Below are positions 10,003-16,814 of a stretch of DNA of 16,877 bases, piece by piece. The DNA is from Promethearchaeota archaeon (GTDB lineage Archaea; Asgardarchaeota; Lokiarchaeia; Sigyniarchaeales; SOKP01). Position 1 is the stretch's first letter. Every line of letters begins with the position of its first letter. Made by a program: the position numbers and the translations under genes. Where the stretch lies: positions 1 through 16,877 of the forward strand of contig JBHLOC010000005.1 of the NCBI GenBank assembly GCA_048940925.1, read 5' to 3'. The notes beneath the pieces are model-generated. The model was not told the DNA's origin. It worked only from the letters and a program-made list of their open reading frames with translations, and made no database searches.

Positions 10003-11115
10003 ATGACTGATATTCATTTTAATAAAGAAAAAGGTTCTCAATTAAAGTTATTTACCCCAGGACCAGTCTATGTTCCAGAAAGAGTTCTCAAGGAATTAGC
10101 AAAACCAAACGATACTCATAGATCTAAACCATATTCAGAGATGCATCAAATAGTGACAGAAGGTCTTCAAAAATTATTATATACTAAAAATGAGTGTTTA
10201 ATATTTACATCGAGTGCAACAGGTGTTATGGAAGCATGTGTTAGAAATTTAGTGAAAGATGATGAAAAAGCATTATTTTTTTCAATTGGCGCTTTTGGTG
10301 ATAGATGGTATAATATAGGCATTTCAAATGGAAAAGATTCTATTAAAGAAGGAGTGGAATGGGGAAAAGCTATAACCCCTGAATTTGCTCAAGAAGTTTT
10401 GAATAAAAACAAATATTCAGTCGTCTTTATCCAAGCTAATGAAACATCCACAGGAGTATATAACCCTATCGATAAAGTAGTGCCAATAATTAAAGATTAT
10501 GGTGCTTTAGTGTGTGTAGATGCTACTTCTTCAATGGGGGGAGTTAAAGTCGAAGTAGATAAATTAGGAATTGATGTTTGTTTAGCTTCAGTTCAAAAAT
10601 GTTTTGCCTTATCGCCTGGTCTTGCTGTATGTTCTGTTTCAAATAACGCTTTTGAGAAAACAGAACAAGTAAAAAATAGGGGACTATATTTTGATCTTCT
10701 TGAAATGAAAAAAAGAAATGCAAAACACCAAACACCTACCACTCCGCCTATACCTCAAATAAGAGGCCTAAGTGCTCAATTAGATTATATTTTAAATAAA
10801 GAAGGTTTGGAGAAAAGATTCGAGAGACATGAACAACTTGGAAAAAGAACACGGATGTGGGTACGTGACATTAGCCTTGAAATGTTTCCTGAAGAAGGAT
10901 ATGAATCAAATACTGTCTCTACTATAAAGAATTCATTAAATCTTGATATCTCTAAAATGATTTCTATGCTTCTAGATAAAGGTTATAGAATTGTTAATGG
11001 ATATGGAGACCTCGTAAATAGAACGTTCCGAATTGGCCATATGGGAGAGCTAACTCTTAAAAATCTTGAAGATATGTTAAAAGTTCTTACAGATATTATA
11101 ATAGGGTTAAGATGA
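10003..11115 (+). CDS. Class V PLP-dependent aminotransferase (serine-pyruvate/alanine-glyoxylate/archaeal phosphoserine aminotransferase-like)
   Basis: LFTPGP, THRS, SSATGVMEA, NETSTGV, VDATSS, PLP lysine in SVQKCFALSPG, TPTTP and FRIGHMG. Confidence 0.92.
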   Translation: MTDIHFNKEKGSQLKLFTPGPVYVPERVLKELAKPNDTHRSKPYSEMHQIVTEGLQKLLYTKNECLIFTSSATGVMEACVRNLVKDDEKALFFSIGAFGDRWYNIGISNGKDSIKEGVEWGKAITPEFAQEVLNKNKYSVVFIQANETSTGVYNPIDKVVPIIKDYGALVCVDATSSMGGVKVEVDKLGIDVCLASVQKCFALSPGLAVCSVSNNAFEKTEQVKNRGLYFDLLEMKKRNAKHQTPTTPPIPQIRGLSAQLDYILNKEGLEKRFERHEQLGKRTRMWVRDISLEMFPEEGYESNTVSTIKNSLNLDISKMISMLLDKGYRIVNGYGDLVNRTFRIGHMGELTLKNLEDMLKVLTDIIIGLR

Positions 11116-11286
11116 ATGAATGTGGCTAATTACTCTTCGCATTAAATTTACAATTTTTTTTAACATTTTACTTATATTAAACCACATTATTGAAAATAGA
11201 GTTTAATATTAGATCAAAAACTCTTTAAAGATCTATTTACTAAAAAAAATATTCAAAATTAAACAATTGAGAATCATGCGATTGAT

Positions 11287-12219
11287 ATGAAGATATTAAT
11301 CAGTGATAAACTTCAAGAAGAAGGTATAAAAATATTTGAAGATAATGGATTTGAGGTAGTAAAAAAATTTTCTATAACTAAAGAAGAATTAAAAGAAGAA
11401 ATTGGAGATTATGATGGTATTGTAGTTCGTTCACGGACTAAGTTAACTGCTGATGTATTAGAAAATGCCAATAAGTTGAAAGTTATAGGAAGAGCTGGTG
11501 TTGGATTAGATAATGTAGATAGCGAAAAAGCTTCAGAGAAAAATATTGAAGTTTTAAATACACCAGAAGCTCCTGCTGTATCCGTTGCTGAATTCGCATT
11601 AGGATTAATGTTAGCACTTGCTAGAAAAATTTCCTATGCGGATCGTACTACTCATGAAGGAAAATGGAATAAAAATGAATGTTTAGGTTACACATTAAAT
11701 GGAAAAAAACTTGGATTGATAGGTTTTGGAAATATAGCAAAACATTTAGCAAAAATTACAATTGCTATGGGAGCAGATGTTGGAGTTTATTCGAGGTTTA
11801 GCAAGGGTCAAGTAGCTATTGATGAGGCTAAAAAAATGGGGTGTTCAATTTATTCTTCAGTTGAAGATTTATTAAAAGAAGTGCAAATCATCTCATTGCA
11901 TCTTCCTTCTTCACCTCAAACTGTAAATATAATCAATGAGCAAAGAATAAAATTAATGAGAAAAGATGCGATACTTATTAATACGGCAAGAGGCAATTTA
12001 GTTGATGAAAAAGCATTAATTAAAGCATTAAAAGAAAAAGAGATTGCTGGTGCAGCCCTTGATGTGTATCGTGAAGAACCTCTTAAAGACCAAACATTAA
12101 TTAACTGGGATGAGAATCTTATACTCACACCCCACATAGCATCACAAAGTATTGAAAACCAAACTGCTGCAGCTACTATGATTGCAGAAAAAATGTCTAA
12201 TTATCTACAAAAATTTTAA
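11287..12219 (+). CDS. serA: D-3-phosphoglycerate dehydrogenase-like D-2-hydroxyacid dehydrogenase (short form, no ACT domain)
   Basis: VRSRTK, GRAGVGLDNVD, NTPEA..SVAE, GLIGFGNIA, INTARG, LDVYREEP and TPHIAS (Arg/Glu/His triad). 310 aa with no regulatory domain. The exact substrate is uncertain. Confidence 0.8.
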   Translation: MKILISDKLQEEGIKIFEDNGFEVVKKFSITKEELKEEIGDYDGIVVRSRTKLTADVLENANKLKVIGRAGVGLDNVDSEKASEKNIEVLNTPEAPAVSVAEFALGLMLALARKISYADRTTHEGKWNKNECLGYTLNGKKLGLIGFGNIAKHLAKITIAMGADVGVYSRFSKGQVAIDEAKKMGCSIYSSVEDLLKEVQIISLHLPSSPQTVNIINEQRIKLMRKDAILINTARGNLVDEKALIKALKEKEIAGAALDVYREEPLKDQTLINWDENLILTPHIASQSIENQTAAATMIAEKMSNYLQKF

Positions 12220-12248
12220 AAATTTTATTTTTTCATTTTAACTTTATT

Positions 12249-12443
12249 TTAAAAAAATTCTAGACTTTTATCATATATTGATATATTACATTTATCAAAA
12301 ATTTCTAAATTACTCATGACTAATGATAAATATTTAAGTTTTTTTCCTTTCTCAGATTTCCAAATCATATCTAAAATATCACAAATTGCTGTTTGATTCT
12401 TCTCAATATGAAGTGAAAGCATACCTATGATATACTCTATCAT
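12249..12443 (-). CDS. Small hypothetical protein (64 aa; 74 aa if started at 12473)
   Basis: MIEYIIGMLSLHIEKNQTAICDILDMIWKSEKGKKLKYLSLVMSNLEIFDK... ATG 12443 lies 8 bp after the stop of the upstream small ORF. No recognisable motif. Confidence 0.35.
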   Translation of the reverse strand: MIEYIIGMLSLHIEKNQTAICDILDMIWKSEKGKKLKYLSLVMSNLEIFDKCNISIYDKSLEFF

Positions 12444-12451
12444 TTTTATTT

Positions 12452-12628
12452 TTAATGTATACTTTCCTCCCATTCAACTTCTACAAATAATTGTATTTTT
12501 CCAGAATCATTATCTTCGTATATTGCTTCAAATTTGTATATTCTATCTTCCCATTCATCAGGCCAGACCTTTCTGAAGTCTAGAACGATTTCCTCACTCT
12601 TCTCAGAAATAATAATTTTTTCTTTCAT
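12452..12628 (-). CDS. Small acidic hypothetical protein (58 aa)
   Basis: Not in the track. MKEKIIISEKSEEIVLDFRKVWPDEWEDRIYKFEAIYEDNDSGKIQLFVEVEWEESIH*. ATG start, purine-rich coding-like codons, protein-like composition. Confidence 0.6.
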   Translation of the reverse strand: MKEKIIISEKSEEIVLDFRKVWPDEWEDRIYKFEAIYEDNDSGKIQLFVEVEWEESIH

Positions 12629-12750
12629 GCGTTCACTAAAATGTTAAGAAAGAGTTTTTGTATAAAAAATTTTGTTTTGTGTTAATAATATTTTATTTTT
12701 GCACACAAATTTAAACTAAACAAATGAGGGAAAAGTTTCTGAAGATAGCT

Positions 12751-13950
12751 TTATCCAGATAAATCATGAAGGATTAATCCAGATAATACCTTAGGATCAA
12801 ACCAAGTAGATTTAGGGGGCATTACTCCACCATCATCAGCTATCGATTCTAAATCTCTTATATTAACTGGATATAAGTTAATAAATAAATCATTTCCTTT
12901 TTCAATGATATATTTTTCCATTTCTCTTGGATCTTGTATACCTCCCACAAAGAAAAGATTCTCATCAGAGCGAGGATTAATAATTCCTAAAATTGGATTT
13001 AAAATATTATCTTGAAGAATCGCTACATCTAAGGAATCTCGTTTAGTTTTAAATTTTTTGTCTTTTAAAGTAAGCTTATACCATATACCTTTTAAGCAAA
13101 TGGCAATTTCATTTTTCTTTTTTGGATTAAATGCATTTTCCATTGATTTAACTTTAAATTTATTTTCCAATTTCTTTAAGAATTCAGTTTCACTTAATGG
13201 AAGTTTTTTAATTACTCTATTATAAGATAATATCCGAATCTGATCATCAGAAGCGGTGTATGTTAATAAAAATTGCCAAGGAGCTTCGAAATTTTCGTTT
13301 ATGTCTGACTTTTGCAATTGTATCTTACGGTACTCAGCAGCACTTGCAGCTCTGTGATGTCCATCAGCGATATATACTTTTTTATTCCTAAATAAATCCT
13401 TTAATTTTTGAATGGTTTGGATATTAGTCTCTTGCCATAAAATATGATTATAACCATACTTTTTAAAATTAAACTTTGGTTTCTTTTCTTTGATTTGTTC
13501 GATTAGATTATTAATCTTCTTATCAGTTTGGAATACTGTCCATACCAATCCTGCTGCTACATTTGTTGCGACAATATGACTTGTTCTATCTTTAAGAGGT
13601 TTTTCACGGGTGAATTCGTGCTTCACAATCATTTCATCTTCATAATCTTGAAGAGATATTCCAATAATTAATCCTTGGTGGCTGAAATCGACTGATTCTT
13701 GACGATATACAAATATACTAGGTATTTTTTCTTGAACAATGACTTTTCTTTCTTTAAAATCTATATATGATTTTGAAGCATTTTCATAGATTTCATCCCC
13801 TTCTCCATCAGGTAAAATTAAATGGATCAACGAATTTGGGTTTTTTTTTAGTTCATATTCTTCGTCTTCACTAATTACATCATATGGATTAGTGCAAAAC
13901 TCTTCAGGATTTAAAGGAATAAAGGGCGTTAGTGGAGATATAGTTACCAT
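12751..13950 (-). CDS. DUF1015 family protein (ParB/Srx-like DGHHR motif)
   Basis: PYDVIS, KHEFT...KDR, YIADGHHRAASA, ILSYNRV, LDVAILQ and MPPKSTWFDPK are characteristic of DUF1015. Confidence 0.9.
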   Translation of the reverse strand: MVTISPLTPFIPLNPEEFCTNPYDVISEDEEYELKKNPNSLIHLILPDGEGDEIYENASKSYIDFKERKVIVQEKIPSIFVYRQESVDFSHQGLIIGISLQDYEDEMIVKHEFTREKPLKDRTSHIVATNVAAGLVWTVFQTDKKINNLIEQIKEKKPKFNFKKYGYNHILWQETNIQTIQKLKDLFRNKKVYIADGHHRAASAAEYRKIQLQKSDINENFEAPWQFLLTYTASDDQIRILSYNRVIKKLPLSETEFLKKLENKFKVKSMENAFNPKKKNEIAICLKGIWYKLTLKDKKFKTKRDSLDVAILQDNILNPILGIINPRSDENLFFVGGIQDPREMEKYIIEKGNDLFINLYPVNIRDLESIADDGGVMPPKSTWFDPKVLSGLILHDLSG

Positions 13951-16476: not shown

Positions 16477-16524
16477 GAAAAACAGCTATTTTTAAGCATT
16501 GGAGGGGTTACCGAGTTTGGTCAA

Positions 16525-16576
16525 TTTGATCAGGTCAATCAAGGTCTTAAAATGCTCTTGTACGGGTCAAGACTAT
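16525..16576 (+). other. tRNA intron 1 (52 nt, D-loop, position 21/22)
   Basis: Central helix GGTC/GACT, bulges AA|T and AT|A, intron helix TTGATC/GGTCAA. Confidence 0.88.
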
Positions 16577-16604
16577 AGGTGCTGGACTTAAGATCCAGTG
16601 GCAA

Positions 16605-16632
16605 TTCGTCAGCATTTTGCTGAAGAGCCAAA
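16605..16632 (+). other. tRNA intron 2 (28 nt, loop of the variable arm)
   Basis: Central helix TGGC/GCCA, bulges AA|T and AA|A, intron helix TC/GA plus the hairpin TCAGCA-TTT-TGCTGA. Confidence 0.8.
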
Positions 16633-16651
16633 AGGCCTTCGTGAGTTCGAA

Positions 16652-16683
16652 TCCTGCTTAACCACTTCGGTGACAGCAGAAAG
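16652..16683 (+). other. tRNA intron 3 (32 nt, T-loop, position 59/60)
   Basis: The T stem acts as outer helix; central helix TTCG/AGAA (3 bp plus a G.A), cut sites AA|T and AG|T. The internal hairpin TGCT..CAC-TTCG-GTG..AGCA ends in a C-UUCG-G tetraloop. Confidence 0.85.
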
Positions 16684-16814
16684 TCTCACCCCCTCCACAC
16701 TTAAATTTAGAGTTAAATGCATTTACTCTCAAATTAAGCTTAAATCAAAAAAAAAAGATATAAAAGATTTTAGTCTAAAAATATGATTCAAGAGTTAATA
16801 TTAACTGGTCAACT

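Follow-up and report, generated by a model that had tools for sequence, protein, structure and literature searches.

Whether an intron that lies in the loop of the long variable arm of a tRNA-Leu, immediately 5′ of the two bases A47c and G47d, controls the charging of that tRNA or is simply carried along by it is the question raised by a tRNA-Leu(UAA) gene in a Promethearchaeota (Lokiarchaeia) genome (assembly of 4.8 Mb, 29.6% GC). The gene occupies positions 16501–16697 of the window, by which we mean the whole stretch of DNA that was analysed, namely bases 1 to 16,877 of contig C18, and it and all of its parts described below lie on the forward (+) strand. ARAGORN and Rfam detected no tRNA in the unspliced window, because three introns interrupt the tRNA; the gene and its three inserts were delimited by reading the sequence by hand. 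In-silico removal of all three introns gave a sequence of 85 nt that ARAGORN called as a clean tRNA, tRNA-Leu(taa). The UAA anticodon arm of this gene is the only one found in the assembly, and TTA accounts for 50.6% of the leucine codons in the long open reading frames of the genome. The gene must therefore give a working tRNA, and it is almost certainly essential and has to be processed.

The precursor is 197 nt long and the mature tRNA 85 nt, not counting the CCA, which the gene does not encode, and all three introns are non-canonical. Exon 1 (16501–16524; tRNA positions 1–21) is followed by a D-loop intron of 52 nt at position 21/22 (16525–16576), which has a central helix GGTC/GACT of four pairs, one of them G-U, and an intron helix of 6 bp; an attempt by hand to resolve this insert into a tandem pair of introns, or to read it as an intron at 17/18, gave no BHB. 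Exon 2 (16577–16604; positions 22–47b) comprises the 3′ strand of the D-stem, the anticodon arm, with the anticodon TAA at 16589–16591, and the 5′ strand of the variable arm. It is separated by the variable-loop intron, 28 nt in length and situated at 47b/47c (16605–16632), from exon 3 (16633–16651; positions 47c–59), which starts with A47c and G47d (16633–16634). Finally, a T-loop intron of 32 nt at 59/60 (16652–16683), with a relaxed motif in which three of four central pairs form and a junction that can be slid by one base, precedes exon 4 (16684–16697; positions 60–73).

An earlier reading made from the sequence alone (the sequence-only reading) had described the variable-loop intron as flanked by a perfect 4-bp central helix with correctly placed 3-nt bulges. 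The helix is indeed exact: TGGC at 16599–16602 (T44, G45, G46 and C47 of the exon) and GCCA at 16627–16630 of the intron form four Watson–Crick pairs, from which the strands lead into a 5′ bulge, AA|T (16603–16605), and a 3′ ‘bulge’, AA|A (16631–16633). Only the 5′ bulge, however, is closed on both sides; the second lacks exon-side closure, here and in all orthologues, and on this one point the description needs correcting. On the intron side, the helix consists of two pairs, TC/GA, followed by a G-A mismatch and then by a 6-bp hairpin. The exon-side helix h has no pairs in any of 22 orthologous introns, which leaves the strict hBHBh′ arrangement incomplete, and because this helix is absent the motif is classed as HBh′ and not as full hBHBh′. 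HBh′ is a recognized relaxed class of archaeal tRNA intron motif (PMC4090602; PMC5829648), and several features of that class are found at this locus: a tRNA gene is interrupted and removal of the insert restores a standard cloverleaf, identical to that of intron-less orthologues; a 4-bp helix is formed between exon and intron, each strand of which runs into a 3-nt bulge with the predicted cut after its second base; and a flanking helix h′ (2 bp + 6 bp) lies in the intron and covaries across the orthologues. The splice-ready pairing is the minimum-energy structure given by RNAfold, and among 200,000 shuffles of the intron only 0.05% combined four Watson–Crick central pairs with at least two intron-helix pairs (0.4% when G-U pairs were allowed). 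No other tRNA gene of the genome was found to carry a close copy of the intron, of the sort that marks translocated introns of the Thermoproteales type, the best other matches having an E-value of 1.6. Neither was there a C box or an antisense element of an intron-encoded box C/D guide, of the tRNA-Trp type, in the three introns of the gene, and the Rfam C/D families gave no match on the tRNA genes that were scanned.

The splice register was assessed with orthologous genes, which were recovered from 42 of the 54 genomes of the genus and, in addition, from metagenome contigs. Excision of 16605–16632 leaves T-GGC-AAAG-GCC-TTC, as the sequence-only reading had proposed, and this product is identical in every letter to the arm of the intron-less alleles (for example, L013, L014 and L016); a few intron-less alleles have ACAG, ATAG or GCAG loops, ending in AG in every case. 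At the same 47b/47c site we found 22 distinct introns, 27–36 nt in length and mostly of 28 nt. In the predicted register, 20 of these have both the full central helix, with all four pairs, and the intron helix; with the register moved by one or two bases, the motif is present in none; and one common spliced product is obtained from all 22, in the predicted register only. Such a unique register agrees with an intron placed in the loop of the variable arm and with cuts predicted after 16604 and 16632, as originally put forward. In an alignment of 13 orthologues, the intron helix has changed on both sides in seven of its nine pairs, giving a covariation score that none of 500 shuffles reached and that slid controls fell far below, although such shuffle controls overstate significance and are not probabilities, because the orthologues are related. 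The central helix is 96% paired in the same 13 orthologues, yet it is almost invariant, and it shows no compensatory signal because its pairs hardly vary.

These comparisons also bear on two other ways in which the arm might be made. The 28-nt segment folds into one long hairpin and might be kept, unspliced, as an enlarged variable arm; we find this hard to credit, because ARAGORN makes no tRNA call on the sequence with the middle insert (16605–16632) kept, the exon segment AG-GCC-TTC would be displaced and A47c and G47d moved off the loop tip, the boundaries of the segment fit BHB geometry in a single register, and the exact intron-less allele is present in congeners. Slighter still is the chance that a different junction is used, such as a 26-nt excision that would leave a 4-bp arm with a loop of four A residues. 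The product of that excision is also a tRNA in ARAGORN, but G47d is lost from the loop tip and the junction has no BHB geometry, and it is disfavoured further by the intron-less orthologues, none of which shows an arm of 4 bp.

Turning to the enzymes by which the 28-nt intron would be removed, the genome encodes two EndA subunits, with genes on contigs C58 and C18, and RtcB. The alpha subunit gives its best alignment to the EndA of Aeropyrum pernix, with an intact catalytic region and a specificity-loop lysine equivalent to K44, and the second subunit is of the non-catalytic type and resembles a structural subunit; as judged from these sequences, the host endonuclease is a predicted (αβ)2 EndA with a broad-specificity loop. 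Enzymes of this type, (αβ)2 EndA with the specificity loop, cut relaxed motifs and are general in Asgard archaea (PMC5829648), and, helix h being absent, cleavage at the 3′ site would depend on the predicted relaxed specificity of EndA. The route that we propose begins with the pairing, in the precursor, of T44–C47 of the exon with GCCA of the intron, which sequence, folding and orthologues show to form the HBh′ motif. The (αβ)2 EndA would then cut after 16604 and 16632 and RtcB would join the exons, after which GGC would re-pair with the GCC of the exon, such that, if the work on Haloferax, Pyrococcus and Natrialba can be carried over, an AAAG tetraloop would present A47c and G47d to the leucyl-tRNA synthetase (LeuRS).

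That archaeal LeuRS reads the loop of the variable arm, which the sequence-only reading had taken as known, is well founded: recognition is through A47c and G47d, and it is the C-terminal tip of the enzyme that does the reading (PMC4005665). The LeuRS of the present genome, encoded on contig C57, is of the archaeal type and aligns to that of P. horikoshii over its full length, including the C-terminal tip, and the variable loop is NNAG in all five leucine isoacceptors; on these loops and on the published work we base the designation of A47c and G47d as identity bases. Charging probably requires splicing of the variable arm, because the unspliced arm could not present the two bases at the tip of the loop. 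A search of the genome for LeuRS also brought up two adjacent class I synthetase-like reading frames, of 870 and 917 amino acids (G000:C63:22111–26243), which fall below the LeuRS cut-off.

Two further proposals, that the precursor must switch folds and that splicing gates aminoacylation as a special mechanism, fared less well. The splice-ready fold is already the preferred one, at −17.4 kcal/mol against −14.4 kcal/mol for the alternative and with a pair probability of 0.78 vs 0.03 for the mature pairing; given this gap of 3 kcal/mol, the mature arm should therefore form passively after excision. Two folds of similar energy, conserved in relatives, as in a regulatory switch, were not found, and the borrowing of an exon strand by the intron is true of every non-canonical BHB intron. 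In its strong form, the idea would be that the intron is retained at this site so that splicing, by way of a switch of folds, controls leucylation of the tRNA that decodes UUA. Such control would be well placed, with the intron directly 5′ of A47c and G47d in a tRNA that decodes half of all leucine codons, and positions 47b/c, 47c/d and 47d/e of the loop have been used repeatedly in Asgard tRNA-Leu. Nevertheless, we regard it as very improbable: the alternative fold has roughly a 3% share of the pairing, function would be blocked to the same degree by the introns of the D and T loops, the 28-nt hairpin has no visible ligand- or protein-sensing element and drifts in sequence, and the intron is missing in 25 of the 42 congeners, its state differing between sister species. 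What holds of the proposed gate holds trivially, as it would wherever an intron interrupts the body of a tRNA, the D-loop and T-loop introns of this gene among them. Genuine regulatory gating would be a novelty, but the evidence speaks against it.

Across the genus, the 47b/47c intron is found in 17 of the 42 genomes, an intron at 43/44 in nine (one of which also has that at 47b/47c) and an intron at 47g/47h in four, the 43/44 and 47g/47h introns mostly obeying the same motif rule, and 13 of the 42 have no intron in the region of the variable arm. The 47b/47c intron is not a conserved control switch, because most close relatives are without it. On a tree of RtcB, which is a single gene taken from MAGs, there are at least 10 changes of the 47b/47c state, sister species that are well supported carry different states, the grouping of all carriers in one clade is rejected (p-AU 1e-7), and identical (G046, G017 and G058) or near-identical introns occur on separate branches. 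Across species, the intron types of the D, variable and T loops are found in many different combinations (L001–L059, L138–L143). These observations suggest either that exact loss has happened repeatedly or that species have exchanged alleles, two possibilities which one MAG gene tree cannot separate, and the distribution is what a tolerated passenger would show rather than a conserved control element. We consider it highly probable that the 47b/47c insert is a non-canonical, protein-spliced tRNA intron and a roughly neutral passenger with no dedicated regulatory job. The gene would contain several such interchangeable passengers, of which this one is gained and lost among congeneric species, and we propose that it persists there because the local exon permits a spliceable motif.

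Other orthologues carry introns in further arrangements. In genome G022, a single allele (L012) has introns at both 43/44 and 47b/47c, which would need sequential splicing because both motifs use T44. A D-loop insert at 21/22 is present in every orthologue recovered from the genus, either in a long form with the 6-bp intron helix or in a short form without it, and an intron-less D loop was not seen among these orthologues. Additional sites were observed at about 15/16 (L093 and L105), near 21–23, as a second insert (L018), and at the canonical 37/38 (L140). The series of alleles in the genus (none, 43/44, 47b/47c and 47g/47h, in combination with several D-loop and T-loop introns) provides a test set for the gain, loss and exchange of tRNA introns.

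This is a known kind of intron at an unusual site, and its exact position is possibly unrecorded. ‘V-arm’ introns are reportedly listed by Marck and Grosjean in 2003. A study of complete Asgard genomes reports that 92–95% of their tRNA genes contain introns (PMC11291895), and we placed the intron coordinates from Supplementary Data 4 of that study on the Leu and Ser genes of the matching genomes (G138 and G071). Introns called by tRNAscan-SE lie in the 4-nt variable loop at 47d/47e in Freya Leu(GAG), Freya Leu(TAG) and Atabeya-2 Leu(CAG), and at 47c/47d in Atabeya-2 Leu(CAA), and uncalled inserts are present at the same variable-loop sites in further Leu(UAA) and Leu(CAA) genes of the Freyarchaeia and Atabeyarchaeia lineages. 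The intron described here is like these tRNA-Leu introns (Valentin-Alvarado et al. 2024, PMC11291895) in its Asgard host, in the loop that it occupies, in the kind of motif and in belonging to a multi-intron gene, but it differs in its site, 47b/47c, before both identity bases, and in its occurrence in a Lokiarchaeia genus; the variable arm goes unmentioned in the main text of that paper. It also shares with the HBh′/hBH introns of the Crenarchaeota/TACK archaea (PMC4090602) the 4-bp central helix, the cut after the second bulge base, the single flanking helix, the presence of up to three introns per gene and a CSL-type EndA, whereas 47b/47c is not among the positions given in that review text (20/21 to 59/60, including 45/46).

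A census by Goswami, Ghosh and Sinha (bioRxiv 10.64898/2026.10.13.758758) describes repeated gains and turnover of introns with BHB-enriched boundaries, and it scores insertions in the variable region; insertions in class II variable arms are acknowledged and omitted from the drawing, and the (αβ)2 EndA is treated as a permissive background. That census centres on Jordiarchaeia and Atabeyarchaeia, whereas the present case is a Lokiarchaeia genus, and in its main text recombination and a shared motif of introns both go unmentioned. The position is less new than was suspected, the neighbouring positions of the loop being already catalogued; 47b/47c itself was not met outside the genus and its metagenomic kin in a small sample, made up of some 26 Leu(UAA) genes together with a dozen more. 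The case shows how far Asgard tRNA introns reach, into the loop read by archaeal LeuRS and within an almost certainly essential gene that is invisible to ARAGORN and Rfam.

The part of this work with the best chance of new biology is most likely an intron motif shared by Leu(UAA) and Met genes. The D-loop intron contains GGGTCAAG (16564–16571), a GGGYYAG motif in its local form, and GGGTCAA is kept in the D-loop intron of 41 of the 42 genus genomes, even in the short forms without a pairing partner. Among Leu(UAA) genes from other genera, in about ten families, 20 of 26 contain a GGGYYAG-type motif within an intron (shuffles expect 1.8) and 24 of 26 fit a looser pattern, one of the misses being a trimming artefact, counts that are to be read with the pattern having been defined after it was seen and the sampled genes not being independent. 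GGGYYAG was found in none of 12 Leu(CAA) genes. In two complete genomes the motif is present in the Leu(UAA) and elongator Met introns, plus one other gene each (of 37 and 43), and it also occurs in the Met intron of the present genome; two additional Met genes have it too, and another two have variants of it. The position of the motif-bearing intron varies, being 21/22 here and elsewhere about 25/26, 32/33, 37/38 or, in the variable loop, 47c/47d (window 16564–16571; L144, L186, L191, L201–L221, L281 and L285). One published gene, the second Leu(CAG) of Atabeya-2 (L196; G071:C1:2410455–2410592), has the appearance of a tRNA-Thr(CGU) that contains two introns and has a short variable loop, and it carries the motif as GGGTCAG.

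In archaeal pre-tRNA-Met, base pairing between the intron and a guide RNA precedes splicing (PMC2584109), and by analogy with that system our guess is that GGGYYAG may have a role in precursor-dependent modification of the wobble base. A broader version, which we put forward tentatively and think somewhat more likely to be wrong than right, is that, the variable-loop intron being a passenger, GGGYYAG could be a functional element that tethers a precursor-specific modification, independently of the position of the intron, in Leu(UAA) and elongator Met across the Asgard archaea. No credible box C/D guide lying antisense to GGGYYAG, or to the anticodon loop of Leu(UAA) or Met, emerged from a search of this genome and 60 others, and a literature search on the motif found nothing relevant. 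If the proposal is true, selection maintains some Asgard tRNA introns even as the sites that they occupy change.

Two observations from the same contig may be added. A partial look-alike of the variable-loop intron at C18:18521, 1.9 kb downstream (E 1.6), lies outside any tRNA and was judged to be due to chance; the stretch adjoining it (G000:C18:18390–18560, beyond the window) looks non-coding, and a short reading frame within it, YWIGFLYAE, is reminiscent of a helix of a LAGLIDADG endonuclease. Within the window, genes for a class V aminotransferase, a SerA-like dehydrogenase and a DUF1015 protein are grouped at 10003–13950.
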